From: a virus
Taxonomy: Duplodnaviria; Heunggongvirae; Uroviricota; Caudoviricetes
Length of the DNA: 36,682 nucleotides
IMG/VR virus record: IMGVR_UViG_2609459792_000013
Direction: 5' to 3' (one strand)
A program made the translations under genes and the position numbers. The notes beneath the pieces are model-generated. The model saw nothing but the letters and a program-made list of their open reading frames with translations. It was not told the DNA's origin and did no database searches. Shown piece after piece: positions 1 to 34,062 of this stretch (positions are counted from its first letter, which is position 1; the number at the start of each line of letters is the position of its first letter).

Positions 1-1053
1 TTACGGGGTAATGCCAACCGCTGCCGCCACTTTGTCGCCACTTGGCAGCGTTGCCAGAGGATTGAAACGGAGCGCCGTTTCCAGATGATCCGGTGCCAGA
101 TGTGCGTAACGCATAGTCATTTTTATATCGTGGTGTCCGAGAATTTTTTGTAAGGCCAGAATGTTTCCACCCGACATCATGAAGTGCGCCGCAAACGTAT
201 GGCGCAGAACGTGTGTGAGTTGACCGCGAGGGAGCACGATAGACGTTTTTTCCATCACGGATAAAAATTGAAAATAGCAGTCTGTGAAGAAATTGAACCC
301 ATCAAGCGCCATGATCTCTTCGTAAAGCTCTTTACTGATAGGGATGCTTCTGTTTTTCTTCCCCTTCGTTCTTACAAAGGTAATTCGGTATTTGGTCACC
401 TGTGAACGAGTAAGATTTACGGCTTCTCGCCAGCGTGCGCCTGTGCTTAAGCATATCTTAACTACCAGTGCCAGAATTGGGTCCTGACGTTTGCAATCAG
501 CCAGTAATTCAACAATCTGCTCATGGGTAAGCCATGCCATCTCTTTTTCTGCGATGGTGAATTTTCGCATGTTCTCCAGTGGGTTCGGATACGACCATTC
601 GCCCAGGCGGGATAGTTCGCTAAAAACACTACTTAGATAGCTTTGCTCCAGGTTAATGGTGACCGGGCTTGCTCCTTTCTTCCATTTCTCGCTGAAGTAG
701 ATCTCACCTGTCAGGCGTTTATCTCGATAGTGGGCAAACATTTTAGAGGTTAGATCAGTTGCAAGGGGATTGCCCAGAGCGTCAACCATCAGCAGCAATT
801 TGTCATAGACATGCTGCCCAGCTGTCAGTGATTTACCATGTAGTTTGAACCATAGCTCAACCACGTCTTTCAGTGTTCGACGATCCACTGATTCTCCCAG
901 CCAGGGCTTTGCTTCGGTTTCTTCCATCGTATGGCGCTCAAAAGCCAGAGCTTCGCCTTTGGTGGCGAATTGTTTACGCACACGACGCCCACTACGTCCG
1001 GCGGGGTAACATTCGCAAAGCCATTTTCCTGTGGTGAGTTTTCGTACTGCCAT
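1..1053 (-). CDS. int: Tyrosine-type site-specific integrase (P2 Int-like)
   Basis: Track ORF 1..1131; start trimmed to ATG at 1053 (MAVRKLTTGKW..., GGAGGG RBS 8 nt upstream), which aligns with my recollection of the P2 Int N-terminus. C-terminal HxxR and RYAHLAP tyrosine motif. Confidence 0.9.
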   Translation of the reverse strand: MAVRKLTTGKWLCECYPAGRSGRRVRKQFATKGEALAFERHTMEETEAKPWLGESVDRRTLKDVVELWFKLHGKSLTAGQHVYDKLLLMVDALGNPLATDLTSKMFAHYRDKRLTGEIYFSEKWKKGASPVTINLEQSYLSSVFSELSRLGEWSYPNPLENMRKFTIAEKEMAWLTHEQIVELLADCKRQDPILALVVKICLSTGARWREAVNLTRSQVTKYRITFVRTKGKKNRSIPISKELYEEIMALDGFNFFTDCYFQFLSVMEKTSIVLPRGQLTHVLRHTFAAHFMMSGGNILALQKILGHHDIKMTMRYAHLAPDHLETALRFNPLATLPSGDKVAAAVGITP

Positions 1054-1239
1054 AAAAAATGCCCTCCAATAGAGAGCATTTTTACTGTATATATAAACAG
1101 TGTCAATGTATGAAATCCTGCGACCATACATCTCACTGAAGCCATAATGAAGTTGGCTATTTTTTGCTATGTGAGTATGTGACTTTTGCGGTTAGCCTGC
1201 GGCTCATTGTTATATTAGGCGCAGATATAAAAGCAAAAT

Positions 1240-1431
1240 TTATCGCGAGTTTTTAGTACAGATTTTTTTTGATTTACTAATAGTTCCATCATTGCAAACG
1301 AACTTTCCATCGGAGGTACAGTGAGAGACACCTCCCTTTTTCCCAGAACAAGGATAATTTTTAGCATAGGTAGTTAGTGGGTTTAATAACAAAGAGCATG
1401 ATAAAACCACAAAAAATACCTTACCAAGCAT
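1240..1431 (-). CDS. Small secreted Cys-rich protein (63 aa) inserted between cI and int; candidate lysogenic-conversion moron
   Basis: N-terminal signal-peptide-like segment [23 protein letters not shown], then a Lys/Cys-rich mature part with 4 Cys. GGGAGG RBS 7 nt upstream of the ATG, directly after the cI stop; region is AT-rich. Confidence 0.6.
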
Positions 1432-1446
1432 AGTTTCCTCCCGGTA

Positions 1447-2022
1447 TTACCTAACGTACTTAATTGTTAAACTTATAATTTTCCCAATTATTTCAACATC
1501 TTCTATCTTGCACTCGAAGGCTCTGTTTCCACCTTCAACGAAGATTCTTCCACCGGGTAAACGAGTAATGTCGCGGATTGTTATTTCGCCATCAATACTT
1601 ATTACCCATTTACCGTCACGTATATCATCAAATTCTTTATCACAAATAAATTCAGAATTGTTATCTGTGATGACAAAAGGTTTTTTAAACGTAGAGGGTA
1701 GAAATCCCTTATCAAAAATATAAAAACCGTCTTCACGCAAGGCACCATCAGATAATACATATTTAGCAACTTCCATAGTATTTGTATTACCTGAAGTTTG
1801 CTTTGAACCATGTCCGGTTGTGAGCCAATTAAGCGAGGTGCCCGTTTCAAGGGCGCACTGGATTACCCATTCTGCTGGGAATGAGTCACGCATGTAGCGT
1901 GTGGCGAGTGTACTTTTAGAGATTCCTAAATGATCGCACAACGCCTGTCGAGTTTTGAATCCATAAGCTTCTACCATGCGCTCTATAGCGCCTCGTCCGC
2001 CTTTCTCCAAATTCATGGTCAC
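1447..2022 (-). CDS. cI: Immunity repressor, phage 186 CI-like
   Basis: 191 aa, the size of 186 CI rather than 99-aa P2 C. N-terminal HTH-like region (EAYGF...CALETG...WLTTG) recalled as 186 CI-like. Divergent from the apl/cII operon. Confidence 0.75.
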   Translation of the reverse strand: MTMNLEKGGRGAIERMVEAYGFKTRQALCDHLGISKSTLATRYMRDSFPAEWVIQCALETGTSLNWLTTGHGSKQTSGNTNTMEVAKYVLSDGALREDGFYIFDKGFLPSTFKKPFVITDNNSEFICDKEFDDIRDGKWVISIDGEITIRDITRLPGGRIFVEGGNRAFECKIEDVEIIGKIISLTIKYVR

Positions 2023-2040
2023 TCCAAGTGAACTTTTATC

Positions 2041-2069
2041 TTGACGATTTCACTGTGCGATCGTATGTT
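2041..2069 (+). promoter_or_regulatory. Candidate early lytic promoter (pR-like)
   Basis: TTGACG (2041-2046), 17-bp spacer, TATGTT (2064-2069), about 75 bp upstream of the apl-like ATG. Nearby imperfect repeats GCGATCGTAT / ACGATCCGTAT could be operator half-sites. Confidence 0.3.
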
Positions 2070-2141
2070 TATGGTGTTCACAAAATACAAACGATCCGTA
2101 TTCGTCCTGATTAATCATCATTAAACGAGGAATGTTGCATC

Positions 2142-2363
2142 ATGAGACCTAACATTTCAATCACTCTTACCACGCCTCATGTGACTATTGAACGCTATAG
2201 CGAGCTGACAGGGCTGTCCATCGATACCATCAATGACATGTTGGCTGACGGACGCCTTATCCGTCACCGTCTGCGCAAAGATAAAAAACGTGAAAAAGTG
2301 ATGATCAACATAGCAGCCATGACCGTTGATGCGCTTTCAGAATGCAATCTAAACCTTAATTAG
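2142..2363 (+). CDS. Apl/Cox-like excisionase-regulator (73 aa)
   Basis: Small basic ORF that is first in the rightward early operon, divergent from cI; called by position and size as in P2 cox / 186 apl. Confidence 0.6.
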
Positions 2364-2395
2364 TTCGATTCTGAAATACATCAGAGGCATTGACC

Positions 2396-2905
2396 ATGTT
2401 TGATTACCAAGTTTCCAAACATCCACATTTTGATGAAGCCTGTCGTGCATTCGCATTGCGCCACAACCTAGTGCAACTGGCAGAACGTGCAGGCATGAAT
2501 GTGCAGATTCTGCGGAACAAGCTGAACCCAGCTCAACCTCATTTATTAACCGCACCAGAAATCTGGTTGCTTACCGATCTGACTGAAGATTCAACGCTGG
2601 TAGATGGCTTTCTGGCACAGATTCACTGCCTGCCATGTGTACCGATTAATGAGGTGGCAAAAGAGAAACTGCCGCATTACGTCATGAGTGCAACTGCAGA
2701 GATAGGGCGTGTCGCGGCAGGTGCGGTTTCTGGTGATGTAAAAACCAGTGCAGGCCGTCGTGATGCGATCAGCAGCATTAACTCTGTTACACGACTGATG
2801 GCGCTGGCTGCTGTTTCATTGCAGGCCCGTTTACAGGCTAATCCTGCGATGGCGAGTGCAGTTGATACCGTGACTGGCCTCGGTGCTTCATTCGGTTTGC
2901 TGTGA
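2396..2905 (+). CDS. cII: CII-like lysogeny establishment regulator (186 CII family)
   Basis: ATG at 2396 gives 169 aa starting [19 protein letters not shown]..., strongly matching my recollection of 186 CII (length and motifs [25 protein letters not shown]). Track start at 2390 is a TTG. Confidence 0.8.
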
Positions 2906-2912
2906 GGTGCTT

Positions 2913-3113
2913 ATGCTGACGAAAGAACCATCATTTGCATCGCTGCTGGTAAAACAAAGCCCGGCAATGCACTACGGTCACGGCTGGATCATGGGTGAGG
3001 ATGGTAAACGCTGGCATCCGTGCCGTTCACAAGATGAATTGCTGGCAGAACTATCTACGAAAAAACGGGGGAACAAATGGCTATTGAAGGCGCTGCGGCG
3101 ACTGTTCCATTAA
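2913..3113 (+). CDS. Hypothetical early protein (66 aa)
   Basis: ATG at 2913 with GAGGTG RBS; sits where 186 carries the small early gene fil. Function not determinable from sequence. Confidence 0.45.
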   Translation: MLTKEPSFASLLVKQSPAMHYGHGWIMGEDGKRWHPCRSQDELLAELSTKKRGNKWLLKALRRLFH

Positions 3114-3418
3114 GCCCCGGTGAACGCCTGAATGGACTTAATCACATAGCGGAATTAAGGGCGAAAGTTTTTGGCCTGAATATTGAGTCAGAGCTTGAGC
3201 GGTTTATTAAAGATATGCGTGATCCACGGGATATCAATAACGAACAAAATAAACGAGCACTGGCAGCCATATTCTTTATGGCAAAAATTCCGGCTGAACG
3301 TCATAGCATCAGCATTAATGAGCTGACCACTGACGAAAAGCGGGAGTTGATTAAAGCAATGAATCATTTTCGTGCAGTGGTGAGCTTATTTCCCAGACGG
3401 CTAACCATGCCGAATTAA
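3077..3418 (+). CDS. Hypothetical early protein (113 aa)
   Basis: Track ORF in the early operon; overlaps the previous ORF in another frame; no motif recognised. Confidence 0.45.
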   Translation: MAIEGAAATVPLSPGERLNGLNHIAELRAKVFGLNIESELERFIKDMRDPRDINNEQNKRALAAIFFMAKIPAERHSISINELTTDEKRELIKAMNHFRAVVSLFPRRLTMPN

Positions 3419-3485
3419 CCAACCAATGAAATTAATGGCGTAAACCCGCCGGGCATCCCTTTATCTAAATTCAGGAGAATTGATT

Positions 3486-3719
3486 ATGCGTAATATTGAA
3501 ACCCTCTCGACCAAAACCGGACCGGATGACGCAGGGCTTAATATTTTACTGACAGAGGCTCGTCTGGAAGAACGCCGGGCAAGGGCTGAAGCAATGGCAG
3601 CTCGCCTTGATAGCCTGGCGTGTCATATCACATCCCGCCAGCTAACCCACGTCGAAGCGGCAGAACTGCTTCGTGTGACTGCTGAAGCAATCCAGAACGA
3701 AGCGCAGGAGATCCACTAA
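3486..3719 (+). CDS. Hypothetical early protein (77 aa)
   Basis: ATG at 3486 with AGGAG RBS 8 nt upstream; its stop overlaps the next start (TAATG). Confidence 0.5.
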   Translation: MRNIETLSTKTGPDDAGLNILLTEARLEERRARAEAMAARLDSLACHITSRQLTHVEAAELLRVTAEAIQNEAQEIH

Positions 3720-3946
3720 TGGCTGATGCAATGGATCTCGTACAGCAGCGCGTTGAAGAAGAACGCCAACGCCATATCCGTGCTGCCCGTGCCAAAACGC
3801 CGGGCGTGTCCCGCGTGCTTTGCATTGAGTGTGAAGCGCCAATTCCGCCAGCACGCCGCCGTGCCATTCCGGGTGTGCAGCTTTGCATTACCTGTCAGGA
3901 AATCGCAGAGCTGAAAGGCAAACATTACAACGGAGGTGCTGTATGA
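3719..3946 (+). CDS. TraR/DksA-family C4 zinc-finger protein (75 aa)
   Basis: CIEC...x17...CITC four-Cys motif typical of phage TraR/DksA-like proteins; stop overlaps the Dam start (ATGA). Confidence 0.7.
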   Translation: MADAMDLVQQRVEEERQRHIRAARAKTPGVSRVLCIECEAPIPPARRRAIPGVQLCITCQEIAELKGKHYNGGAV

Positions 3947-4800
3947 GCACCATCCTGAAATGGGCGGGAAATAAAACTGCCATAATGTCCGAACTGAAAA
4001 AACATCTTCCTGCTGGCCCGCGACTGGTTGAACCTTTCGCGGGTTCCTGTGCTGTGATGATGGAGACGGATTATCCCAGCTATCTGGTTGCGGATATTAA
4101 TCCTGATTTAATCAACCTCTATAAAAAGGTTGCCGCTGATTGTGAATCGTTTATATCTCGCGCCAGAGTTTTATTTGAGATCGCAAACAGGGAGGTGGCT
4201 TATTACAACATAAGGCAGGAGTTTAATTACTCAACTGAAATTACTGATTTCATGAAAGCGGTATATTTCCTGTATCTCAATCGTCACGGTTACCGTGGTT
4301 TATGTCGCTATAACAAGAGCGGGCATTTCAACATTCCCTACGGTAATTATAAAAATCCGTATTTCCCTGAAAAAGAAATTCGCGCATTTGCAGAAAAGGC
4401 CCAGCGAGCAACGTTTATCTGCGCCAGCTTTGATGAAACGCTGGCGATGTTGAAGGCGGGGGATGTGGTGTATTGCGATCCGCCGTATGACGGTACGTTT
4501 TCCGGCTATCACACTGACGGCTTCACTGAAGATGACCAGTATCACCTGGCATCTGTTCTTGAACATCGGTCATCAGAAGGACATCCGGTCATTGTTTCTA
4601 ACAGTGACACATCCCTGATCCGTTCGCTGTATCGCAATTTTACTCACCACTACATCAAGGCAAAACGCAGCATCGGTGTGGCAGCTGGCGAGGGTAAATC
4701 AGCAACAGAAATCATTGCTGTTTCCGGGCCGCGCTGCTGGGTGGGATTTGATTATTCGCGTGGCGTGGATAGTTCTGCCGTGTACGGAGTACGTGCATGA
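3943..4800 (+). CDS. dam: DNA adenine methyltransferase (Dam-like, N6-adenine; probably GATC)
   Basis: ATG at 3943 ([11 protein letters not shown]). Motif [10 protein letters not shown] and motif IV DPPY; long collinear similarity to E. coli Dam as I recall it ([32 protein letters not shown]). Confidence 0.85.
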
Positions 4801-7598: not shown

Positions 7599-7722
7599 GG
7601 TCAACTAAGGATTGAAACAGAAAGCCCTTGAAAACAGTAGCAAGTTGCCTATTATCTACGCTGTATTTAATCGATGTCATTGGCTGTAATACCTTAAGTG
7701 ATATTGAAAGGCGGTGTGGGGA

Positions 7723-8883
7723 ATGGATCTGGCTAAAGTTGAAGAACGCGTCCGAAGAGTCATAGGGACAATGGAGTCTGCCGAGCTTGATGAATATTTT
7801 TGGGGTAAGCGCTCGGGTTTGGGAGACTCATTACCTCCGTATTATCTCGTTTATTTTCTTTTGGTAGATTTACTGAAATTTAAAAATCGTGGGGTTGATG
7901 AGAAGATTTCTTTTTCTATCCCAGTCCGGATTGATGGGACTGTCGTAATTATAGAACATCGTAAACTTGGTTTAGATATATTTATCAAGAGTGATGATGA
8001 TATAGAGCAAGCTAAAACTGTTTTGAGACATATTTGCGCAGGGGTTAAAGCTGCTACGAAATTTTTTGACTCGCTTGCAGACAATGCAGCAAAGACTTCA
8101 AATCTAAATGTTAATAACAATGCTAATTCTCTTTATGATAGGTTTTGCTATTTTTTAGAGCTATATAAACAGAAGCTTGATGAAGTTGCTGCTGGCCAAG
8201 AGTCTAAACTGGAAGTTGATAGTGAGTTTAAGTCTGATAATTTTTTCAGCCTGTTACAATCCACTTTTGAACAATCAAATAAGATAATTGAACTCCGAAG
8301 AGAGGCTATGTGGTTAGCAACGTCTGCAATTGAGTCATTTTTCAATTGGACCGAGCATGTTTTCATTCTTATTGCAATCTTGAAGGGTGAGATAAAAAAT
8401 GGGAATGATGTGGCTGATAAAGTTGGGAAAGAATGGGGGGAGAAATTCAAATTAGCCATTGATATTAACTCTTCCAGTCTAAAATCATTCTATGAACGTT
8501 TACTTATACTCAGAAAACAGGTGCGTAATTTTGTAGCCCATGGCGCCTTCGGTAAGGATGGGCAAGCATTGGAATTTCACTCAAGTGTAGGGGCTGTGCC
8601 ACTATTGCTGCCTCATCGAGAAAATAAAGAACGTTTCAAGTTTGGAAATGGTGTACATTTTTTGGCACCTGAAGCAATGCAATTAATTAACGATTTTCTT
8701 GAAAATTTGTGGCAGGGAGAACTGTCCCCAGCAAAAATTTATATTGAATCTGGATGTCCTTTAATACTATCTTACGTAACTAATGGAACCTATGCGGAGG
8801 CGATGAAATCAGAAAGGAATATGGACTTATTGGTTAATTACTTAACTCGTGAGATGGATAATGCCGCAAACATGGATTGGTAA
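7723..8883 (+). CDS. Cargo protein (387 aa), unknown function; candidate HEPN-like nuclease (R-N-x3-H motif)
   Basis: Long AT-rich ORF (ATG 7723; track start 7714 is a GTG) in the P2 tin/old slot. Motif LRKQVRNFVAHG matches the HEPN Rx4-6H signature; no Walker A motif seen. Confidence 0.75.
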   Translation: MDLAKVEERVRRVIGTMESAELDEYFWGKRSGLGDSLPPYYLVYFLLVDLLKFKNRGVDEKISFSIPVRIDGTVVIIEHRKLGLDIFIKSDDDIEQAKTVLRHICAGVKAATKFFDSLADNAAKTSNLNVNNNANSLYDRFCYFLELYKQKLDEVAAGQESKLEVDSEFKSDNFFSLLQSTFEQSNKIIELRREAMWLATSAIESFFNWTEHVFILIAILKGEIKNGNDVADKVGKEWGEKFKLAIDINSSSLKSFYERLLILRKQVRNFVAHGAFGKDGQALEFHSSVGAVPLLLPHRENKERFKFGNGVHFLAPEAMQLINDFLENLWQGELSPAKIYIESGCPLILSYVTNGTYAEAMKSERNMDLLVNYLTREMDNAANMDW

Positions 8884-9083
8884 ACTCTAGGTGCGGGTTA
8901 CAAACACACAAAAAATCTTCCTGAGTTAGGTGTTATCCCAACCCAAGGCTGTGTCAGGAAAACTTCATATGGCGCATGAGATCGCATGATAGTATGACGA
9001 TCGTTTTCGCTGATGCCAGCCTGAGCTGGCGGGCTGTTGCATATGTCATGCAGGCGCATGAAAACCACTGCATAAAGCGGGTA

Positions 9084-9102
9084 GGCGTGGCGGGGATACG
9101 AG
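9084..9102 (+). other. Putative cos (cohesive-end) site
   Basis: GGCGTGGCGGGGATACGAG: the first 13 nt match the 186/P2 cos 19-mer as I recall it (GGCGTGGCGGGGAAAGCAT / GGCGAGGCGGGGAAAGCAC). Lies in a GC-rich non-coding spacer upstream of the Q-P packaging genes. Confidence 0.5.
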
Positions 9103-9208
9103 CGCGCGGGATGACATAACAGATTGAATTGAAAAATATTGACTAAATGTAAAATGCGAAGGATATTTAGCCCCTCTATGAAGTTTTAGATATGGAAAAT
9201 GATAGGTT

Positions 9209-9499
9209 ATGAAAACGATATATAGCTATGATTACCAATACTTGCCTAAAGGGTCCACAAGACCAATTGATGACGGAGATATAGTAGGCTGTTCGTCAGA
9301 AGAAAATCCTTTTCTTCTACTTCCCAATGTAGGTGATTTTGTCTCTATATGTAATGACAATAGTCGGTCTTCGTTTAGTGGTATTGTTAAAACTAGATAT
9401 TTCACTTATACGAGAATAAGTGAGGAGTGCGTACAATGTTCAATTAATATTGTAGTTGCAGAATCTGATGTAGATTGGGGTACTCTTATTAAAGAATAA
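9209..9499 (+). CDS. Cargo protein (96 aa), cytoplasmic, unknown function
   Basis: AT-rich ORF between cos and Q; candidate promoter upstream (TTGACT at 9140-9145); no recognisable motif. Confidence 0.6.
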   Translation: MKTIYSYDYQYLPKGSTRPIDDGDIVGCSSEENPFLLLPNVGDFVSICNDNSRSSFSGIVKTRYFTYTRISEECVQCSINIVVAESDVDWGTLIKE

Positions 9500-9554
9500 T
9501 ATGGGGCGTCTGCGTAAGTGGGCGCTATTAAAATAAAATGGAATCTTGTAATGT

Positions 9555-10241
9555 ATGGTTAAATTTAATAATAACTTTGATTTTCCATTGGTAACAATAC
9601 TGACGGTGTTGCTATTTATATTGGCATATTTTTTTAAACTTGGTGAGGCCGTTTATTTTGGTTATCCAGCAATACTTATATCATTAGATTTAACGAGTGT
9701 TGCGAATATTTCTTTAAAGCTTTTTTTCTATTTTGGTAGTATTGTTATAGGTGTTTTTAATTTTATTTTGAATGATGGTGCGATTAAACTTAATAAAATT
9801 AAGTATGTTCTTTGGATTTTTATTGCCATAACAATATTTTCAGTTTTTTTAAGTTTTAAGAGGGGGGAGAAAGACTTAGTTAACTATCTTAATGGTGGTC
9901 TTTTTGGTATTTGTTCATGGTTGGTGGTAATGTCGTTGTTCAAAACATTTGAACGAAGTGGTGATTTGATTAATATAGATTTCGTATATGCCATATTAAC
10001 GGTTTTCTTTATGTCAGTTACTAGTTTTCTTGGAGGGATTAATTATCATAATCAGTTTGCATCTGTTCTATGGAAAACCTTGGATGGAAAAATAGTAGTT
10101 GGAGAATATAACGGCAGTTTTGTTTTAAAGAAATGCGTAGATGGCAAAGGGGTTTTTAGCTTTAGAGAGGTAAATGGTAGCGAATTTGTTGAGGTTGTAA
10201 ATTATGTGGAAGGGAAGTTTAATCCAAGGTGCAATAGATAA
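9555..10241 (+). CDS. Cargo membrane protein (228 aa), about five TM helices plus a roughly 60-aa C-terminal soluble domain
   Basis: Hydrophobic stretches LVTILTVLLFILAYFF, ISLKLFFYFGSIVIGVFNFIL, YVLWIFIAITIFSVFLSF, LFGICSWLVVMSLF, FVYAILTVFFMSVTSFLGGI; very AT-rich; ends 25 bp before the convergent Q stop. Confidence 0.7.
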   Translation: MVKFNNNFDFPLVTILTVLLFILAYFFKLGEAVYFGYPAILISLDLTSVANISLKLFFYFGSIVIGVFNFILNDGAIKLNKIKYVLWIFIAITIFSVFLSFKRGEKDLVNYLNGGLFGICSWLVVMSLFKTFERSGDLINIDFVYAILTVFFMSVTSFLGGINYHNQFASVLWKTLDGKIVVGEYNGSFVLKKCVDGKGVFSFREVNGSEFVEVVNYVEGKFNPRCNR

Positions 10242-10266
10242 AGGTGCCAGGGCACCTTTCAAATAA

Positions 10267-11298
10267 TTATTCAAGTTTGTAGGCGTCAAAACTGATAACA
10301 GTTTTACCTAACCATATATTCAATTCTTCAAATCTTTTTTGCAATGATGTTAGTTCATTTCTTACAAAAACATTACTCGCCTTCTCCACATCCCCAAACC
10401 CTCCAACATTATTAGGCATAATCCCCATCATTTGCGGCGGCACGCGGTGCGCAGCCATCATGTCATCCCGGCTCACGTTCTTGATATTCAAAAATTCATC
10501 CTTTGCCGCGACTTCTGACAGAGGAATAATCTGAAGCCCGTCCTTTTTGCCGTTAGGCGAGTACATAAACAGGTTGCGGAAGTTGCCTGGACCTTTGGCG
10601 CTTTTCATCGCGTTGCGGAGGTTGTTCACATCTTCCTGGTTCTGCGCGGCGTCGGTCATATACATGATGAAGCCAGCATGACTGCCGTTAATGTAATACT
10701 TTCGACGGAACAGCGTGGCGGACTCATTGAGCAGGGCGGACGGAATGGCAGAAAGATAGCCGGGCAAGCCGTAGATCTCCTGGTTAATGTCCGGTTCCAT
10801 CAGATGAAAAATGCTGCCTTTCGTGAACTGATATGGCTGGGTTGTCATACCGTATTGCACAAACCAGTAGGTATCCAAGTCTAACCCGCGTCGGGTGTAT
10901 TTTGCCAGCGCAGGCTCAAGGGCGATAACTTCACCGAAGCGGTTCGTGCGTTTCTCCAAGTAGGCGTTACCAAAAACCAAATAGTCCTGCACAAAACGCG
11001 AAAAAGCCTGCTGGCTGAGCAGCGGGTGAGGGATGTAGGTGCTGGTCAAAATATTGCATTTCACCGCAATCGGTGAGCTGTGATGCACGGCGGCGCGGAA
11101 GGTTCGTGCCAGCCCGTCAAAGCTGACGGGCGGCTCATACCAGCGATCCATCTGTACGCATTCCACATAGTCCAGCAGTTCGCGGCGGTCCAGAACAGGA
11201 ACGGGATCACCGAAGCTGAATGCTTCGGCTGAAGTCTGGCTTTTATGCTGGTTCTGGTTCGTCGACGCAGCGCGGTTCTTCTTACTCTTTCCCATCAA
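10267..11298 (-). CDS. Q: Portal protein (P2 gpQ-like)
   Basis: 343 aa, recalled P2 Q similarity; operon with P on the minus strand, start overlapping the P stop. Confidence 0.85.
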   Translation of the reverse strand: MMGKSKKNRAASTNQNQHKSQTSAEAFSFGDPVPVLDRRELLDYVECVQMDRWYEPPVSFDGLARTFRAAVHHSSPIAVKCNILTSTYIPHPLLSQQAFSRFVQDYLVFGNAYLEKRTNRFGEVIALEPALAKYTRRGLDLDTYWFVQYGMTTQPYQFTKGSIFHLMEPDINQEIYGLPGYLSAIPSALLNESATLFRRKYYINGSHAGFIMYMTDAAQNQEDVNNLRNAMKSAKGPGNFRNLFMYSPNGKKDGLQIIPLSEVAAKDEFLNIKNVSRDDMMAAHRVPPQMMGIMPNNVGGFGDVEKASNVFVRNELTSLQKRFEELNIWLGKTVISFDAYKLE

Positions 11299-13061
11299 AA
11301 AATCTCCACAATATTGCTGGCATTGGCGGACTCGCCCTGCAGCGGTTCGTTAAACAGTGCGTGCATTGTTGCCCAGGCCAGATCGGCATGGCTGGCTTCT
11401 TCGCTGCGGCTGGCTTCATAGGTCGGGCGGTTGCCGCTGGCGGTGGTGGCGCGACGGATTGCCATGAATGACTGCGCAATGTCGGTGTGTCCGGCGTCAA
11501 ATTCCAGGCGGCGGTGACTGATAATGTCGTAGGCCTTGAGTACCAGGGCGTTTTTAACGTTGGGGTTGTAGACAAACTCCCGGACGGCAGGAAAAAACGC
11601 TTTCACGTTCTCGTAAACCCCGTGACCGACGCCGGTCGAGTCGATGCCGATATAGGTCACGTTATACTGTTCGGTCAGTTTTTTGATGGCGTCAGCCTGG
11701 GCGCGGAAGTCCATTCCGCGCCACTGGTGACGCTCAAGAATGCGGAACTTACCGCCCTGCACGGCTGGCGGTGCCACCACCACGCATCCGGCGCTGTCGC
11801 CGTTCTGCGTACCTTTTGCCGGGTCATAACCGATCCACACTTCGCGCCAGCCAAACGGGCGCAGGGCCAGTGCATGAAAGTCGGTCCAGACTTCCCAGCT
11901 GTCCACCATGCACGCCTGCAGCTCGCTGAGCGGGAACACGGACGCGAGATCGTCCACGAATTCACACATCAGCAGGTTCTGGTATTCGTCCGGGCTGTAT
12001 TCCATGCGCAACTGGTCAAGGTCGAACAGGTTACAGCCGCCGCGCACCGCATCTTCCACGGTGACTATCTGGCGGTATTGCCCGTCTGCACACAGCAGGC
12101 CTGGAGCCAGATTGCTGTGGGACAGGTCGATGTCCACCTTGTCGGCTTTATTGCGCCCACGGTTGAATAGCGCACCGGACCAGAACGGATAAGCACTGTG
12201 TGTCAGGCTGGATGGCGTGGAAAAATAGGTTTGTCGCCATTTTTTGTGAATAGCCATACCGGAAGCCACTTTGCGCAGCTCCTGGAATTTCGGGATCCAG
12301 AAATATTCATCCAGATACAGGTTGCCGTGGTAACTCTGGGCCGTGCGGGCATTGGTGCCGAGGAAATACAGTGTGGCCCCGTTGGGAAGCACCATCGGAT
12401 CGCCTTTCAGCTCCACTTCCACTTCTTTGGCGAAGTCGATGATGTACTGCTTAAAGACGTGGGCCTGTGCCTTGCTGGCGGAAAGGAAAATCTGGTTACG
12501 TCCGGTAAGCAGAGCGTCAATCAGGGCTTCACGGGCAAAGTAAAAGGTCGCGCCGATCTGGCGTGACTTCAGCAGGTTGCGGATGCGGTTGGTTTTTCCG
12601 GCTTCCCACCAGTGGCGCTGGTAGTTGAACATGGAGGAATGGAAGATTTCTTCCAGCTTCTCAATCTGCTCATCGGTGAAAACATTCTTTTCCGGCTGAC
12701 GGCGCGGGCCTTTGTTGCGGTTGGCGACGTTAGGGTTTAAGTCGGCTTCGTTGCCGCCATTGTTAAACTTGCCGATCCGCGCGTGGCGTTCCGACTGGCG
12801 CGCCAGCAGGTCAATCTCTTTGAAATCTTTCCCTTCTTTGTGCTCCTTCATAATGAGCTGGCAGTAGCGTGCGGCGGTGGTGAGCTGCATCTGATCCAGC
12901 GGCCCATAGTCACCCCACTTGTCGCGTTTCTTCCAGCTGTGAACGGTTGCAACTTTCTCGCCCAGCATTTCAGCAATGCGGGCTACACGGTATCCCTGAA
13001 AGTACAGCAGCATGGCCTGCCGACGGGGATCGAGATCTGCGGGTGTCAGTGTGGTGTTCAT
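11295..13061 (-). CDS. P: Terminase large (ATPase) subunit (P2 gpP-like)
   Basis: 588 aa in the position and orientation of P2 P; an alternative start at 13013 is possible. Confidence 0.85.
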   Translation of the reverse strand: MNTTLTPADLDPRRQAMLLYFQGYRVARIAEMLGEKVATVHSWKKRDKWGDYGPLDQMQLTTAARYCQLIMKEHKEGKDFKEIDLLARQSERHARIGKFNNGGNEADLNPNVANRNKGPRRQPEKNVFTDEQIEKLEEIFHSSMFNYQRHWWEAGKTNRIRNLLKSRQIGATFYFAREALIDALLTGRNQIFLSASKAQAHVFKQYIIDFAKEVEVELKGDPMVLPNGATLYFLGTNARTAQSYHGNLYLDEYFWIPKFQELRKVASGMAIHKKWRQTYFSTPSSLTHSAYPFWSGALFNRGRNKADKVDIDLSHSNLAPGLLCADGQYRQIVTVEDAVRGGCNLFDLDQLRMEYSPDEYQNLLMCEFVDDLASVFPLSELQACMVDSWEVWTDFHALALRPFGWREVWIGYDPAKGTQNGDSAGCVVVAPPAVQGGKFRILERHQWRGMDFRAQADAIKKLTEQYNVTYIGIDSTGVGHGVYENVKAFFPAVREFVYNPNVKNALVLKAYDIISHRRLEFDAGHTDIAQSFMAIRRATTASGNRPTYEASRSEEASHADLAWATMHALFNEPLQGESANASNIVEIF

Positions 13062-13107
13062 GGCACAAACCTACAGCCTTGAATGAAGGCTTTCCCCGCC
13101 TGCGGTT

Positions 13108-13125
13108 TGTGTGGTAGTCGGTACA
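13108..13125. promoter_or_regulatory. Late-promoter activator dyad TGT-N12-ACA in the P/O divergent region
   Basis: TGTGTGGTAGTCGGTACA matches the dyad I recall as the Ogr/B-type late activator site (upstream of sigma70 late promoters). Centre is 87.5 bp from the O ATG and 55.5 bp from the P ATG. Confidence 0.55.
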
Positions 13126-18195: not shown

Positions 18196-18631
18196 ACTGC
18201 AGAAGGTGGACGACTGGCTGAGTGCTTTGCTGGCGAATCTGGAGCCAGCCGCAAGAAGCCGCATGATGCGCCAGCTGGCGCAGGAACTGCGCCGGACACA
18301 GCAGCAGAACATCAGGATGCAGCGCAATCCAGATGGCAGCAGTTATGAACCGCGCAGGGCAACAGCACGCAGCAAAAAGGGGCACATCAAACGTCAGATG
18401 TTTACAAAGCTGCGCACCTCTAAATACCTTCAAACTACCGCCAGCGCCGATTCTGCCAGCGTGCAGTTTGAAGGTAAGGTGCAGCGCATTGCACGCGTTC
18501 ACCATTACGGCCTGCGTGATCGCGTCAGTCGTCATAGTTTTAAAGTGAAATATGCGCAACGGCGTCTTCTAGGCGTTAATAAAGACATAGAAATTTGGGT
18601 TCGAAACACACTGAAGCACTGGCTTGTTTAG
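18188..18631 (+). CDS. S: Tail completion protein S (gpS-like)
   Basis: 147 aa, GTG start overlapping the R stop; position as in P2. Confidence 0.8.
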   Translation: MAELQKVDDWLSALLANLEPAARSRMMRQLAQELRRTQQQNIRMQRNPDGSSYEPRRATARSKKGHIKRQMFTKLRTSKYLQTTASADSASVQFEGKVQRIARVHHYGLRDRVSRHSFKVKYAQRRLLGVNKDIEIWVRNTLKHWLV

Positions 18632-18645
18632 TGCTTCAGTGTGTT
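18605..18645. other. Perfect 16-bp inverted repeat (9-nt loop) at the convergent S / cargo-gene junction
   Basis: AACACACTGAAGCACT (18605-18620) and AGTGCTTCAGTGTGTT (18630-18645) are exact reverse complements; spans the S stop codon; no clear U-tract on either strand. Confidence 0.4.
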
Positions 18646-18656
18646 AAAACAGAAGA

Positions 18657-20408
18657 CTATTGGTTGAATATGAAGCTGATAATATTTTCAGGAGTGAGCT
18701 CTATGTTTTTTTTATTAAGTTTTTGAATGTACATTTTATATTTCATTTCAACGTTTCGGAAGCCTTGCGCAACAGAAAGTATTTCTACAGGATGAGATGA
18801 AAGTTTTATTAAGGAGTTAATGACTGTATCTAGGTAGATGTGAGCATGTTCAACTAAAACATTTGTTTTTGATGGGGTTTTTCCAGTGTGAACTATCAAG
18901 TTTCTAGTTCTATATATTCTCCTAATTTGCCAGTTGATTCTTTCTGCATGATTTTTAAGTGCCTGATACATAGTATCAGTTGAGGAAATTAAATTGCTAA
19001 TATATTCAAATCTCTCTTTCAATAACGGAAATTGTGATAGTTCTATCTTAAACTGATTGATGCTAGGGGCATGTTCTTGCGAAGCAACAAGAATTACAAA
19101 TGATTTGGCTGCATCGCTATCTCCAATTAGTCTTAGAAGTGACATGGTTCGAGGATGATTCCATCGTTGTAAGTCTTTTATAAGATTCCTTACTAGGTCT
19201 TCAATATAATTCAGGTTTAAAAATGGTGTTAATGAATTAACGATATGTTCTATCGTGGATTGTTCTTCTTTTTTTGATTCGTCGGGGATGAGTGATTCAA
19301 TAGCAATCCATAAATTTAAAAGCTGATTTTCTACAGCATTTGTCTGTAGTGCCATTGAATGTAATTGTACACTTCTTATGAATTTATTGAAAGAATCCTT
19401 GCGCATTCTGAAATTATTCATGAATTGTTCGAGTCTTCTGCTTGCGTGTTCCTGAACCAGATCCTTGCAGCGGTGCATTGGGTTTATGCTGCTTCTTATA
19501 TTGATTTTTTCACCATTTTCACTAACTACAATGTTCTCTGCAGACCATGATGCTTCTTGCTTATGATGATAGAGAGAAAGCAAAGTTGATGCGAGCTTTA
19601 AGTTTCTTTCAGCTACCCTTCTAGCCGTGAATGGATCAAGTGCTTTAACATGCTTAACTAAAATAGTTCGTTGTTCATGATTATCGAAGAAATCTGTTTC
19701 ATTAATATTTTCGGGGGTTTCAAGAACAACCTCAATTTCTAATTGTGATAAGCATGGAGTAATATAACTAAAAGATTTGTCAGCATTGAAATAAACTGAA
19801 TATTCTTGTGTCTCTGAGGGGATGTTCTCTAGGAATGTAATAATCTCTTCATTTGAACTGATCTCTCGTTCTCTTTGGAAGAAATGTTTTTTTAGACTTT
19901 CCATCAAATATTCTTGACTTAATCCTTTTGATATTAGATGGGTAATCAACAGTCTTGTAAACTTTCGAATTTTATTTGGGTTGTATTCTGAAGTTATTGT
20001 AGAGCAAAGTTCACTGATGAGTTTGCTTTCATAATTACCAACATTAAGTTGAACTCTCAGTAATTCAAGAGTTATTTTTAGATTTTTATTTCCTAACTGA
20101 TTGTTTTGGAGTTGATCTAAAAATGAACCTAAAGGGTTTTTTAGAAGACTGATTGCGATGTCATCATTCTTAATATTTTTAGTTAATTCGTCAATGACGT
20201 GGGATATATGTGCGGGGCTTATGTTGCCTTTTTCTATATCATCGATTGTTGATATTGCTTCTATACATAAACTTGGAGTGTTCATTATAGAAGGTTTATA
20301 TGTACTATGGGTGTAATCAAAGAGAAGTTCCTCCATTAACTCGGTGAAATAAATAAGCGCAGTGCATTGTTCAATATGATTCCAGTTGTGTAGTCTTCTA
20401 AATTTCAT
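18657..20408 (-). CDS. Cargo protein (583 aa) antisense to the late operon in the S-V moron slot; candidate HEPN-like abortive-infection protein
   Basis: Very AT-rich ORF; ATG at 20408 (MKFRRLHNWNH...). The track TTG start at 20528 would overlap gpV and is rejected. C-terminal motif IRRIYRTRNLIVHTGK matches R-N-x3-H-x-G; no Walker A motif. Confidence 0.8.
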   Translation of the reverse strand: MKFRRLHNWNHIEQCTALIYFTELMEELLFDYTHSTYKPSIMNTPSLCIEAISTIDDIEKGNISPAHISHVIDELTKNIKNDDIAISLLKNPLGSFLDQLQNNQLGNKNLKITLELLRVQLNVGNYESKLISELCSTITSEYNPNKIRKFTRLLITHLISKGLSQEYLMESLKKHFFQREREISSNEEIITFLENIPSETQEYSVYFNADKSFSYITPCLSQLEIEVVLETPENINETDFFDNHEQRTILVKHVKALDPFTARRVAERNLKLASTLLSLYHHKQEASWSAENIVVSENGEKINIRSSINPMHRCKDLVQEHASRRLEQFMNNFRMRKDSFNKFIRSVQLHSMALQTNAVENQLLNLWIAIESLIPDESKKEEQSTIEHIVNSLTPFLNLNYIEDLVRNLIKDLQRWNHPRTMSLLRLIGDSDAAKSFVILVASQEHAPSINQFKIELSQFPLLKERFEYISNLISSTDTMYQALKNHAERINWQIRRIYRTRNLIVHTGKTPSKTNVLVEHAHIYLDTVINSLIKLSSHPVEILSVAQGFRNVEMKYKMYIQKLNKKNIELTPENIISFIFNQ

Positions 20409-20452
20409 ATTAATACCTTGTTTTGTGAAGCTTGAATTTACCTTTAGCGCAT

Positions 20453-20470
20453 TGTTTGTTGCTTCATACA
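20453..20470. promoter_or_regulatory. TGT-N12-ACA dyad between the cargo gene and V (late-promoter activator site candidate)
   Basis: TGTTTGTTGCTTCATACA, with flanking extended symmetry TGTTTG...CAAACA. Centre is 55.5 bp from the V ATG (20517) and 53.5 bp from the cargo ATG (20408). Confidence 0.45.
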
Positions 20471-20516
20471 AACATGGTTTGTTTGTGATCTCAAGTGTTT
20501 GATTAAGAATTTGAGA

Positions 20517-21095
20517 ATGAACGTACAACTCACGGAAATCATGCGCCTTATCACCAATCTGATCCGCACAGGGGTAGTCACCGAAGTGGACCGGGAAAAC
20601 TGGCTTTGCAGGGTGAAAACGGGCGAGCTTGAAACCAACTGGATCAGCTGGCTGACGCTACGTGCCGGAAATGCCCGGACATGGTGGCGACCATCGGAAG
20701 GTGAGCAGGTGGTGCTGCTGAGTCTGGGCGGCAATCTGGAGACCGCCTTTGCGCTGCCCGCTGTCTATTCGAATCAGTTCGCACCACCGTCGACGTCGGC
20801 GGACGCCTGCGTGACAGAACATCCTGACGGTGGCTGGTTTGAATACGAACCCGCCACCGGGCGCTGGTATGTCAGGGGCATCAAATCAATGGTCATTGAG
20901 GCCGCTGACAACATCACCCTGAAAACCAGTGAGTTTGTACTGGAGGCTGACCGCACGCGCATTAACAGTGAAGTGGTGATCAATGGTGGAGTTACCCAGG
21001 GCGGCGGAGCGATGAGTTCTAACGGGATCGTGGTTGATGCGCATCAGCATACTGGCGTCCTGAAAGGCGGCGATACAACCGGAGGCCCGGTATGA
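20517..21095 (+). CDS. V: Baseplate spike protein (gpV-like)
   Basis: N-terminus MNVQLTEIMRLITNLIRTGVVTEVD resembles recalled P2 V; an alternative start at 20541 is possible. Confidence 0.8.
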   Translation: MNVQLTEIMRLITNLIRTGVVTEVDRENWLCRVKTGELETNWISWLTLRAGNARTWWRPSEGEQVVLLSLGGNLETAFALPAVYSNQFAPPSTSADACVTEHPDGGWFEYEPATGRWYVRGIKSMVIEAADNITLKTSEFVLEADRTRINSEVVINGGVTQGGGAMSSNGIVVDAHQHTGVLKGGDTTGGPV

Positions 21096-24384: not shown

Positions 24385-24828
24385 ATGAATAAAGTTAAAA
24401 GTGTTTACAGCCCGTCCGAAAATGCAATCTACAACGCAGCGCTATATGAAAGTTATATCAAGGAGGGGACATGGCCGCAGGATGGTATTGAAATCAGCGA
24501 TGAGGATGCTGTCAGATTTAATGGGGGAAATAAGCCAACAGGAAAAATGCTGGGAATGGTTTCAGGGACCCTTGCATGGGTTGATGAGCCGCCGCTTTCA
24601 CCAGAACAGAAAATATCAGATGCAGAAAACATGAAAGCCACATTTCGTGCAAAAGCTGACAGTGAAATATCCTGGCGTCAGGATGCTGTTGATGCTGGTA
24701 TCGCAACTGATGAAGAAACTTCAACTCTCACCCAATGGAAGAAATACCGTGTGCTGCTGATGCGTGTTGATACATCAACAGCCCCCGATATTGAATGGCC
24801 TACACCTCCGGCAGTTCAGGCCAGATGA
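24385..24828 (+). CDS. G: Tail fibre assembly chaperone (gpG/Tfa-like)
   Basis: 147 aa directly after H; C-terminal DTSTAPDIEWP motif is shared with the minus-strand Tfa'. Confidence 0.75.
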   Translation: MNKVKSVYSPSENAIYNAALYESYIKEGTWPQDGIEISDEDAVRFNGGNKPTGKMLGMVSGTLAWVDEPPLSPEQKISDAENMKATFRAKADSEISWRQDAVDAGIATDEETSTLTQWKKYRVLLMRVDTSTAPDIEWPTPPAVQAR

Positions 24829-25402
24829 CATCCGGCGCGGTGCTGGTATCTGTTGCCGTCACCGCGTCAATGTAATCCAGCACGGCGTTAAGGCGGGTGG
24901 TTTCTGCCTGCGTCAGCCTCCGCCCGGCCTGTAATTTCAGCTGAATCAGACTGATGGAAGCCATTGCAGCATCAATCAGTGACTGGCGCTGTGCTTCTGC
25001 CGCGTCTACTGCGGCGCAATGCTGTGCCTCAGTATCGGTCACCCATTTCTCACCATCCCATTTATCGTATGGCGTTAACGGGGCGATAGTGGTTGTATTT
25101 TCGGGGTAATCACCCGGAGCTGTGATTTCTTTGGCGTCTCCCGTTTCGGTGTTATAGACGATTTCACCGCGATGGTCTGGCACATATTCCCATGAATTTA
25201 AATCCACAGAGCGACAAATTGCATAACCAGCCTTGTATATGCCAGGTGCCTCCAGACAGGAAAATGCCGGAATACCGACACCCACAGCAAGATATTCAGT
25301 TGATGTGGAAATATATTCCCGTATTTCGCCATCATAGTTATAGACGGTAATATTCCCCGCCTTTGTAGCAATAAACTCGCTATTTAATACAGCGTTATCC
25401 AT
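24800..25402 (-). CDS. Alternative tail fibre assembly chaperone (Tfa'), for the inverted orientation
   Basis: 200 aa; C-terminus DTSTAPDVIWPELP; its 3' end overlaps the plus-strand tfa 3' end by 29 bp (convergent). Confidence 0.75.
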   Translation of the reverse strand: MDNAVLNSEFIATKAGNITVYNYDGEIREYISTSTEYLAVGVGIPAFSCLEAPGIYKAGYAICRSVDLNSWEYVPDHRGEIVYNTETGDAKEITAPGDYPENTTTIAPLTPYDKWDGEKWVTDTEAQHCAAVDAAEAQRQSLIDAAMASISLIQLKLQAGRRLTQAETTRLNAVLDYIDAVTATDTSTAPDVIWPELPEV

Positions 25403-25893
25403 TATGCAGCCCTCACGATATAGTTAAATGCAATATTCCGTGGACGGGTTTCATTTATCCCATATGCTGTTGTTCTCTGATTCCCGACAAAATATCCATT
25501 TGGATTAGAAGATACAGAATAATCATCAAAATCAAGTGGGCTATCAGCACCCGGCGTCAGGCTTGCAATATATCCTCTTCCCATAACTTCTGATGCTGGT
25601 ATTTCTTTTGTACGATAATCACTAACTCTGAAGAGCTGCCCTTGGTGGGTGTGTGATTCCACTCCTCCATTCTGAAGACTTAGCAAGGCACGTACAGCAT
25701 CAATACCACGCCCGTCATCCCAGCCACGAATAAATTCACCGCGTAAATCAGGCAATTTATTTGTCGGGTAAGCCTTTGCCAGTTCCGGGTATTCTTCAGC
25801 AGAAAAAGCTGCACCGTTGCATTTCAGCCAGCCTGTTGGCGGTGTGGCTGAAGGCCATGGAACAGGCACACCAACAGGTAATGCAGAGCCTTC
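25402..25893 (-). CDS. Alternative tail fibre C-terminal (receptor-binding) module H', start-less; expressed only after inversion fuses it to the constant gpH N-terminus
   Basis: Open frame runs from the right hix-like site (codons GLGE in the same phase and with the same nucleotides as gpH 351-354) to the stop at 25402. The track ORF's first 17 codons lie at or beyond the crossover and are not a real start. Confidence 0.6.
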   Translation of the reverse strand, partial: EGSALPVGVPVPWPSATPPTGWLKCNGAAFSAEEYPELAKAYPTNKLPDLRGEFIRGWDDGRGIDAVRALLSLQNGGVESHTHQGQLFRVSDYRTKEIPASEVMGRGYIASLTPGADSPLDFDDYSVSSNPNGYFVGNQRTTAYGINETRPRNIAFNYIVRAA

Positions 25894-25916
25894 TCCCAAA
25901 CCAACGTTTATGAAAA
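25891..25916. other. Right recombination site of the invertible segment (hix/gix-like)
   Basis: TTCTCCCAAACC AA CGTTTATGAAAA resembles the hix/gix consensus TTATCAAAAACC AA GGTTTTTGATAA; about 55 bp upstream of the invertase start. Confidence 0.6.
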
Positions 25917-25971
25917 TGCAGAGATAATGACTAACTGGCATCATCTCCGGTTTTTATTCAGGGGGATGCTC

Positions 25972-26538
25972 ATGCTTATTGGCTATGTACGCGTGTCAAC
26001 AAATGACCAGAACACCGATTTGCAACGTAATGCACTGAACTGCGCGGGATGTGACCGGATTTTTGAGGACAAAATCAGTGGCACTAAGTCCGACAGACCG
26101 GGGCTTAAAAAACTGCTCAGGACACTATCGGCAGGAGACACGCTGGTTGTCTGGAAGCTGGACAGACTGGGTCGCAGTATGCGGCATCTTGTTACGCTGA
26201 TAGAAGAGTTGCGCCAGCGTGGTGTGAATTTCCGAAGCCTGACTGACAGTATTGATACCAGTACCCCAATGGGCCGTTTCTTTTTTCATGTCATGGGGGC
26301 TCTGGCTGAAATGGAACGCGAACTGATAGTTGAACGAACCAGGGCAGGGCTGGCTGCAGCTCGTGCCAAAGGCAGAGTAGGTGGACGCCGTCCTAAGTTG
26401 ACCACCGAACAGTGGGCACAGATTGGGCGTTTACTCGAGGCCGGAGAATCAAGACAGCGTATTGCACTGATTTTTGATGTGGGCGTTTCTACCATTTATA
26501 GAAAATTTCCGGCAAATAAGAGCAGTGAATCCCCCTGA
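25972..26538 (+). CDS. Serine site-specific DNA invertase (Gin/Hin/Pin/Cin family)
   Basis: ATG at 25972 gives MLIGYVRVSTNDQNTDLQRNAL..., near-collinear with Mu Gin as I recall it, including the catalytic Ser in YVRVS and a C-terminal HTH. Track ORF begins upstream at 25927. Confidence 0.9.
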   Translation: MLIGYVRVSTNDQNTDLQRNALNCAGCDRIFEDKISGTKSDRPGLKKLLRTLSAGDTLVVWKLDRLGRSMRHLVTLIEELRQRGVNFRSLTDSIDTSTPMGRFFFHVMGALAEMERELIVERTRAGLAAARAKGRVGGRRPKLTTEQWAQIGRLLEAGESRQRIALIFDVGVSTIYRKFPANKSSESP

Positions 26539-26585: not shown

Positions 26586-26603
26586 TTGTGTGAATAACTG
26601 TAC
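26586..26603 (+). promoter_or_regulatory. Late-promoter activator dyad TGT-N12-ACA upstream of FI
   Basis: TGTGTGAATAACTGTACA; centre is 86.5 bp upstream of the FI ATG, the same geometry as the O site. Confidence 0.55.
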
Positions 26604-26680
26604 AACTACACTTAGCTGTTTGTCGGGCACAATCACTTCAACATAGGGCGAAGCCTAATCCAATCAGGAGGTTCGCCGCT

Positions 26681-33608: not shown

Positions 33609-33827
33609 ATGATGATTTGCCCACTGTGTGGAAGTGCCGCCCATACTCGCAGCAGTTTTCAGGTATCTTCATTGACCAAAGAGCGTTACAACCAGTGCCA
33701 GAACATTAACTGCAGCCATACTTTTGTTACCCATGAAACTTTTGTTCGTTCGATTGCAACGCCAAAAGAGTCAAATCCGGTTCAGCCGCATCCAATGAAA
33801 TCAGGACAGGTGGCGCTCTCTCTTTGA
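33609..33827 (+). CDS. ogr: Late-gene transcriptional activator, zinc finger (P2 Ogr / 186 B-like)
   Basis: ATG at 33609 gives MMICPLCGSAAHTR...QCQNINCSHTF (C-x2-C...C-x4-C), resembling recalled P2 Ogr; last phage gene before the host junction. Confidence 0.8.
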   Translation: MMICPLCGSAAHTRSSFQVSSLTKERYNQCQNINCSHTFVTHETFVRSIATPKESNPVQPHPMKSGQVALSL

Positions 33828-33907
33828 CGCTGCCGCCATTTTGTCGCCATCGTTAAAAAACAGTGTTTCTAACATCATGATTTTAAACAGCTTAAATTTC
33901 AGGCAAC

Positions 33908-33950
33908 AAAAAACCCATCAACCTTGAACCGAAATGGCGGGGTTGATGGG
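33908..33950 (-). terminator. Rho-independent terminator candidate for the minus strand (downstream of ybjL)
   Basis: Perfect 10-bp stem CCCATCAACC / GGTTGATGGG (33914-33923 and 33941-33950) with a 17-nt loop, followed on the minus strand by a run of six T (plus-strand AAAAAA at 33908-33913). Confidence 0.5.
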
Positions 33951-34062
33951 CTCCACAAAATGGGGACATCAAAGAAAAGCAGTGGCACTAATTAAGACTG
34001 ATGCCCTGCGGAAAAGTTCTGCGGTTGTGCAAAAAAATTTCATTTTCAGGGCAACTTCAGTT

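Follow-up and report, generated by a model that had tools for sequence, protein, structure and literature searches.

A palindromic site between gene V and a divergent Ec2ApeA gene in a P2-like prophage is probably the activator site of a leaderless late promoter

Introduction

Late transcription in phage P2 relies on the activator Ogr, which is absent in the P2 lysogen; the P4 promoters Psid and PLL and the promoters of phage 186 are likewise Ogr/Delta/B-dependent. Promoters of this type have a weak sigma-70 core preceded by a TGT-N12-ACA consensus, and their activators are small zinc-finger Ogr_Delta proteins (PMC3931495). Two regions of P2 provide the closest described comparisons, for which we took transcription starts and activator sites from the GenBank annotation (NC_001895). 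At pV, the activator site spans 10239-10266 (center 10252.5) and the V operon transcript is annotated from 10308, where the V coding sequence begins; on these positions the V mRNA is leaderless and the center of the site lies at -55.5. The non-essential minus-strand gene orf30 has its start at 10224, divergent from V and 28.5 bp from the center of the PV site. Elsewhere in the P2 genome, one activator site (3057-3087) is annotated for the divergent promoters pP and pO, whose transcripts start at 3016 and 3127.

P2-like prophages also carry defense hotspots (Rousset et al. 2022, PMC9122126; NAR 2026, PMC13586616). In a term search, neither paper was found to discuss a late promoter inside the hotspot or to place a boundary at the V ATG. 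The defense protein considered here, Ec2ApeA, is an abortive-infection HEPN nuclease that cleaves tRNAs in their anticodon loops; its activators are 5'-phosphorylated deoxydinucleotides, and overexpression brings background toxicity (10.64898/2026.01.26.701840). In that preprint it was expressed from the T7 or the Ec1ApeA promoter, so its native regulation is not described there.

This article concerns the DNA between the start codons of gene V and a divergent Ec2ApeA gene in the window, the whole stretch of 36,682 nucleotides that was analyzed. A preliminary description had drawn attention to a dyad nearly equidistant from the two genes, and proposed that it might serve the V late promoter, control the cargo gene, or couple the two. 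We put the probability at roughly 0.8 that the dyad is the binding site of an Ogr-family activator for the late promoter PV and that its equidistance is incidental, a judgment made from sequence comparison.

The S-V cassette and its cargo

The window is a P2-like (Peduoviridae) prophage: its R, S, V, and W genes match their own Pfam families, and among phage records, Elveevirus and Wadgaonvirus phages of Klebsiella and Escherichia come closest. Between S and V lies an island with one minus-strand gene, framed by the following features.

18605-18645, no strand assigned: hairpin between the convergent S and apeA genes (18-bp stem, -27.6 kcal/mol, z = -7.1), with the S stop codon in the loop
18632-20516, no strand assigned: AT-rich S-V hotspot cassette, containing the cargo and probably its own PV, delimited by GC profile and homology edges
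18657-20408, minus strand: cargo gene for Ec2ApeA (583 aa; HEPN tRNA anticodon nuclease of abortive infection), named by its PDB match
20517-21095, plus strand: gene V (baseplate spike; Pfam Phage_base_V, 6.2e-18)

S ends at 18631; GC content is 0.30-0.36 within the island and 0.54-0.60 on either side of it. At exactly 20517, the window again becomes homologous to hundreds of E. coli prophages; the whole cassette is carried by 11 genomes, and phage records match only its flanks. Relatives hold other inserts in the same place, among them PARIS (AriA/AriB), AbiU, PDC-S59, and ApeA variants. The P2 S-V (orf30) accessory-gene hotspot is recognized by a variable AT-rich insert between conserved S and V, and by its sequence the window belongs to it. 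The hairpin at the S end probably terminates transcription in both directions; it escaped the built-in terminator scan.

Across residues 1-583, the cargo protein matches the Ec2ApeA chains in PDB (9HXI and related) with 1272 bits. It retains the HEPN RxxxxH motif (R502-x4-H507) and the ligand-pocket residues E74, R148, H487, and R490. PADLOC gives an ApeA match (2.4e-12), and searches of Pfam and NCBIfam with the protein gave none. We traced the contexts of ApeA homologs by a search for homologous proteins, followed by inspection of the contigs that encode them. Homologs at 41-80% identity lie nearly always in the same S-V slot, divergent from V; one that is 48% identical lies outside any P2 context and has no dyad upstream. 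A scan of genome contigs with the cargo protein found no relatives. In one locus (L095; Logan ERR12361470_978, 1-4155), the remains of a decayed prophage with ogr nearby, V is cut down to 181 aa, and the dyad is mutated from ACA to ATA beside an ApeA homolog of 584 aa that is still intact; as a single case it carries little weight.

Geometry of the dyad

Read from the window sequence, the dyad is a TGT-N12-ACA element, TGTTTGTTGCTTCATACA, at 20453-20470, centered at 20461.5; with one flanking base per side it becomes TTGT...ACAA, as at the PO/PP and PF sites of the window. Its center lies 55.5 bp from the V ATG (20517-20519) and 53.5 bp from the cargo ATG, whose A is at 20408 on the minus strand. 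There are 108 bp between the two start codons, and the two ATGs are 109 bp apart. Both start codons are identical in the RefSeq/PGAP annotation of a 99.7% identical E. coli prophage, and the coordinates and distances first reported for the dyad are correct.

The extended symmetry that the preliminary description ascribed to the dyad stands in part. TGTTTGT (20453-20459) and ACAAACA (20468-20474) do form a perfect 7-bp inverted repeat, but its axis is at 20463.5 rather than 20461.5; lying 2 bp off the dyad center, the palindrome is no extension of the same dyad. What it does create is an overlapping element:

20457-20474, no strand assigned: second TGT-N12-ACA register, centered at 20465.5

This second center is 51.5 bp from the V ATG, outside the conserved range, and 57.5 bp from the cargo ATG. 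Register and palindrome were considered as a cargo-facing site and rejected, as both are missing from the sister cassettes L087 and L093; on this comparison the second register is probably incidental. The heptamer TGTTTGT or the hexamer TGTTTG occurs three times in direct orientation, at 20453, 20480, and 20496, with ACAAACA at 20468 in between; these direct repeats of 20453-20501 are not kept in the sister cassettes. A search of Rfam found no RNA family in the dyad region.

The late promoter PV

The V side of the dyad is conserved far beyond the ApeA cassettes. Scanning IMG/VR with the V protein gave 80 loci in which V is at least 98% identical, and their S-V gaps comprise an empty class (68-71 bp) and about 11-12 unrelated insert classes of 556-2247 bp. 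Of the 27 distinct upstream sequences, 26 have a TGT-N12-ACA element centered 54.5-56.5 bp (mostly 55.5 bp) before the V ATG, within surroundings that are unrelated. The same spacing recurs in Enterobacter, Pantoea, and Klebsiella prophages that carry ApeA, and in phages with V identities of only 47-86%; the 186-like phage BIS20 differs in having no exact TGT-N12-ACA upstream of V, but retains xAxxxT at -12 to -7.

We aligned 18 cassette classes without gaps, anchored on the V ATG, and kept columns of at least 70% identity. What remains is the dyad, an A at -11 (17/18), a T at -7 (16/18), and nothing else. With transcription taken to start at the first base of the V ATG, this A and T fall on the two key positions of a sigma-70 -10 hexamer. 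A Shine-Dalgarno-like motif at proper spacing precedes 1 of 21 V genes versus 16 of 20 cargo genes. The spacer of the window, compared with those of L087 and L093, is about 70-75% identical in its V-side half and scrambled in its cargo-side half. Taken together, the position-specific dyad, the A at -11 and T at -7, the lack of a V Shine-Dalgarno motif, and the homology edge argue that the dyad is the PV site, that V is leaderless, and that PV is borne by the cassette. Since the homology edge falls at the V start codon, with dyad, spacer, and -10 element inside the cassette, each cassette brings a PV of its own. The cassette promoters share the AT-richness of the cargo, and the promoter of the empty site is not their source. 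The elements in the window are the following.

20453-20470, no strand assigned: putative Ogr-type activator site of PV (TGT-N12-ACA centered at -55.5 from the V ATG; spacing kept in relatives, and the P2 PV site equidistant)
20505-20510, plus strand: predicted PV -10 element AAGAAT, at -12 to -7 of the V ATG, with A at -11 and T at -7

Homologs of V, W, J, and I lie directly downstream of the dyad promoter and correspond to the late morphogenetic operon VWJIHG. The other late promoters of the window, and a candidate for its activator, offer internal points of reference.

13108-13125, no strand assigned: shared PP/PO activator site (TTGTGTGGTAGTCGGTACAA, center 13116.5), an internal reference for a bidirectional late promoter
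26587-26604, no strand assigned: PF activator site (TTGTGTGAATAACTGTACAA, center 26595.5), with CAACAT towards FI, occupying -12 to -7 of a start placed 55.5 bp from the center
33609-33827, plus strand: ogr-like late activator gene, 72 aa (CX2C-X22-CX4C; Pfam Ogr_Delta PF04606, 5e-22; aligns with P2 Ogr)

All four late promoters of the window have xAxxxT at 55.5-56.5 bp from the dyad center; at PP/PO the hexamers are TAGGTT (55.5 bp off, P side) and AACCAT (56.5 bp off, O side). The P ATG (13061) is itself 55.5 bp from the P/O dyad center, with TAGGTT at -12 to -7, and on this spacing the terminase gene P may be leaderless in the window lineage, as against a 23-nt leader in P2. A second TGT-N12-ACA at 13050-13067, probably a chance match, overlaps the P start codon. 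The ogr-like gene scores 98.5 bits with the NCBIfam equivalog, below the cut-off of 116; by its Pfam match and cysteine pattern, the prophage that carries PV appears to encode a cognate Ogr-family zinc-finger activator as well.

Two lines of evidence, the P2 annotation and the conservation of the element at one position in unrelated cassettes, strongly support a role of the dyad in the V late promoter, as the preliminary description had proposed. Judging from these alignments, V mRNA is almost certainly leaderless throughout this group of S-V relatives; by analogy with P2, transcription in the window phage would start at the V ATG and Ogr would bind the dyad. Ogr (33609-33827) would be produced once replication starts and would then bind the dyad at -55.5, recruiting sigma-70 RNA polymerase to a weak core promoter with AAGAAT (20505-20510) as its -10 element. 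The transcript would begin at the A of the V ATG (20517), yielding a leaderless VWJIHG mRNA. ApeA, in turn, would be made in the lysogen from a weak promoter of its own, on an mRNA whose leader holds a Shine-Dalgarno sequence, and the near-equal distances from the dyad to the V and ApeA ATGs would be a coincidence of packing.

Control of the divergent apeA gene

The distance from the dyad center to the cargo ATG is not fixed. It is 53.5 bp in the window, 56.5 bp in L087 (77% identity), 57.5 bp in L093 (80%), 59.5 bp in L089 (55%), and 60.5 bp in L094; in the distant 41% Ec3ApeA-like clade it is 26.5 bp (L090) and 25.5 bp (L065). With other cargoes the distance ranges from 9.5 to 83.5 bp and is 10-40 bp in most cassettes. 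The V side is constant in all cassettes whose cargo-side spacing varies. The cargo side of the window has a conserved element of another kind:

20416-20419, minus strand: AAGG at -11 to -8 of the cargo ATG, its Shine-Dalgarno sequence, kept in 6/6 members of the near ApeA clade

AAGG stands 7-8 nt before the ATG in all six close ApeA cassettes, in a region that is otherwise scrambled. Its conservation implies an apeA mRNA with a leader, whose start must be within about 42 bp of the dyad center, which excludes a start at 55 bp. The sequence CAAGGT at -12 to -7 of the cargo ATG also satisfies xAxxxT (A at -11, T at -7). As a sign of a late promoter on the cargo side, this match was discarded as non-discriminating, because an AAGGxT Shine-Dalgarno sequence fulfils the pattern by itself. 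Genuine late promoters have their start 54.5-57.5 bp from the dyad center, and the cargo ATG, at 53.5 bp, falls outside this range.

A bidirectional promoter of the PP/PO type has both starts about 55 bp from the center, both conserved, and late morphogenetic units on either side. At the S-V dyad the two starts do not show this conserved spacing, and the divergent gene is Ec2ApeA. The suggestion that the dyad couples the two genes or activates the cargo finds no support here: cargo-side spacing varies by tens of base pairs among cassettes, the V side is fixed, and the cargo Shine-Dalgarno sequence is kept. An unfixed distance from ApeA ATG to dyad, together with a normally spaced Shine-Dalgarno sequence, indicates that the equidistance of the dyad from the V and cargo ATGs is most likely incidental, as far as sequence can tell.

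Scanned for consensus promoters, the DNA between apeA and V gave no sigma-70 site on the plus or the minus strand. In a weight-matrix scan of the cargo strand, the best score was 4.2 versus a shuffle median of 5.7, with no sigma-70-like promoter above background; among the sister ApeA cassettes no candidate is conserved, and L087 also has none above background. The best candidate in L089, TTGATG-17-TACATT, scores 9.3, above the 95th percentile of shuffles, and has its -35 within the dyad spacer; the window equivalent of its -10 is TAAATT, 12 nt past the dyad, with a poor -35. In L093 the best candidate lies outside the dyad and adjoins it. As only 108 bp separate the ATGs and a leader is needed, the apeA promoter must overlap the dyad region. 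Expression of ApeA in the lysogen is most likely constitutive.

Such crowding raises the possibility of an operator. With the dyad in or against the ApeA promoter, Ogr and polymerase at PV would shut off new ApeA transcription. This is physically plausible, and as a side effect or a selected switch it is compatible with the preferred reading, to which it would be an addition and not a replacement; even so, we consider it unlikely. The Shine-Dalgarno sequence puts the ApeA start upstream of about 20420 and the -35 of a normal promoter within 20453-20475, and the L089 candidate has its -35 in the dyad spacer, with TAAATT at the equivalent position of the window. Against this, no promoter is conserved across the ApeA cassettes: the L093 candidate does not fall in the dyad, and in neither the window nor L087 does any candidate rise above background. 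Cargo ATGs at 10-40 bp from the dyad center make overlap with PV the rule in most cassettes, yet there is no sign of selection, and a selected overlap would be indistinguishable from forced crowding. Turning ApeA off would be harmless to the phage, given the toxicity of overexpressed Ec2ApeA; its benefit is doubtful, however, as ApeA protein made in the lysogen would outlast the short lytic cycle. Overall, it is doubtful that the Ogr site doubles as a control element of the defense gene, stopping ApeA synthesis at the lytic switch or, less likely, turning it on through a PP/PO-like promoter. Either arrangement, if true, would put an abortive-infection gene under the influence of a phage late activator.

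The second of these options, in which the palindrome also activates a leaderless divergent apeA and Ogr induces ApeA late, is very improbable. It draws on a real precedent: P2 annotates a single site for divergent pO and pP with starts 55-56 bp to either side, and the P/O region of the window shows the same geometry. The S-V dyad resembles these in the 109 bp between ATGs, in the cargo-side CAAGGT, in distances of 53.5-57.5 bp to two possible centers, and in that the weight-matrix scan found no ordinary promoter for the cargo gene of the window. Each resemblance weakens on comparison. One distance (53.5 bp) is out of range and the other (57.5 bp) belongs to the register that is not conserved; across close homologs the cargo-side distance drifts from 53.5 to 60.5 bp, and in the Ec3ApeA-like clade it is about 26 bp, while the V side stays fixed; AAGG at Shine-Dalgarno spacing in 6/6 close homologs explains the xAxxxT match alone; and the 48% identical homolog outside a P2 context has no dyad upstream. 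A defense gene must, moreover, be on in the lysogen, where Ogr is absent, and toxic overexpressed Ec2ApeA would damage the late protein synthesis of the phage itself. A palindrome without function, arisen by chance in AT-rich DNA, would agree with the frequency of bare TGT-N12-ACA, which is not enriched in the whole window (11 matches vs 9.87 expected; 41 of 100 shuffles reach 11), and with the local recurrence of TGTTTGT. This explanation is effectively refuted by the V-ATG spacing, the 18-class alignment, and the comparison with distant phages: the dyad holds its position within 1 bp in unrelated cassettes and in distant P2-like phages, in agreement with the annotated P2 site.

Other features of the prophage

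Three further regions of the window bear on host range, integration, and cargo. At the position of the Z/fun hotspot (24800-26538), a minus-strand Collar-domain protein (25402-25944) and a tail-fiber assembly protein (24800-25402) are adjoined by a Hin/Gin-type resolvase-invertase (25927-26538), just upstream of the PF dyad; this arrangement suggests an invertible host-range segment. An RybB sRNA gene (33905-33983, minus strand, 105 bits) lies about 80 bp beyond ogr, which implies that the prophage end and attachment site adjoin rybB. Finally, 7714-10241 contains ORFs of 389, 96, and 228 aa upstream of a minus-strand ORF (10267-11298) at the portal (Q) position. Pfam and PADLOC gave no match for these three ORFs; by position the region is the classical old/tin hotspot, and it may hold undescribed cargo.

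Implications and comparison with known systems

The native home of Ec2ApeA is the S-V hotspot of P2-like prophages, where its 108 bp of upstream DNA would be mostly PV; this is relevant to studies of its "native" control. The promoters of about 14 unrelated cassettes in this hotspot have in common only the dyad at -55.5, the A at -11, and the T at -7, and would thereby supply a compact natural definition of an Ogr-dependent leaderless promoter. With the starts of most divergent cargo genes at 10-40 bp from the dyad, overlap of their promoters with PV is unavoidable, and interference between a defense gene and the tail operon becomes directly testable.

Among described systems, the P2 tail-region hotspot (PMC9122126, PMC13586616) shares with this locus an accessory or defense cassette between conserved tail genes. 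The P4 (Psid, PLL), 186, PSP3, and phiR73 promoters are likened to PV at the level of the consensus. P2 PP/PO has, like the S-V dyad, a palindromic site roughly midway between divergent starts about 110 bp apart. The two differ in that PP/PO keeps about 55.5 bp and an xAxxxT -10 on both sides, in P2 and in the window phage, whereas the S-V dyad does so only on the V side; and PP/PO is flanked by late genes, whereas the other gene at the S-V dyad is of the lysogenic-conversion type and has a Shine-Dalgarno sequence.

The closest counterpart is P2 PV with orf30. Both occupy the S-V locus, both have a site centered 55.5 bp before the V ATG, and both carry an AT-rich accessory gene on the opposite strand, convergent with S; P2 even has an annotated terminator after S at the place of the S/apeA hairpin. 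They differ in cargo (orf30 is not Ec2ApeA), in the distance of the cargo ATG (28.5 vs 53.5 bp), in V, which is only 42% identical, and in the site itself: P2 PV has no exact TGT-N12-ACA, and the window dyad is a perfect one. A divergent gene beside the PV activator site, which the preliminary description had thought an unusual regulatory arrangement, is therefore already present in P2 itself. The S-V dyad is a standard P2-family late-promoter site in its standard place, beside a cargo already characterized in structure and mechanism. The chief gains are a set of minimal, leaderless PV promoters carried by the cassettes and a view of where Ec2ApeA sits natively in the genome.
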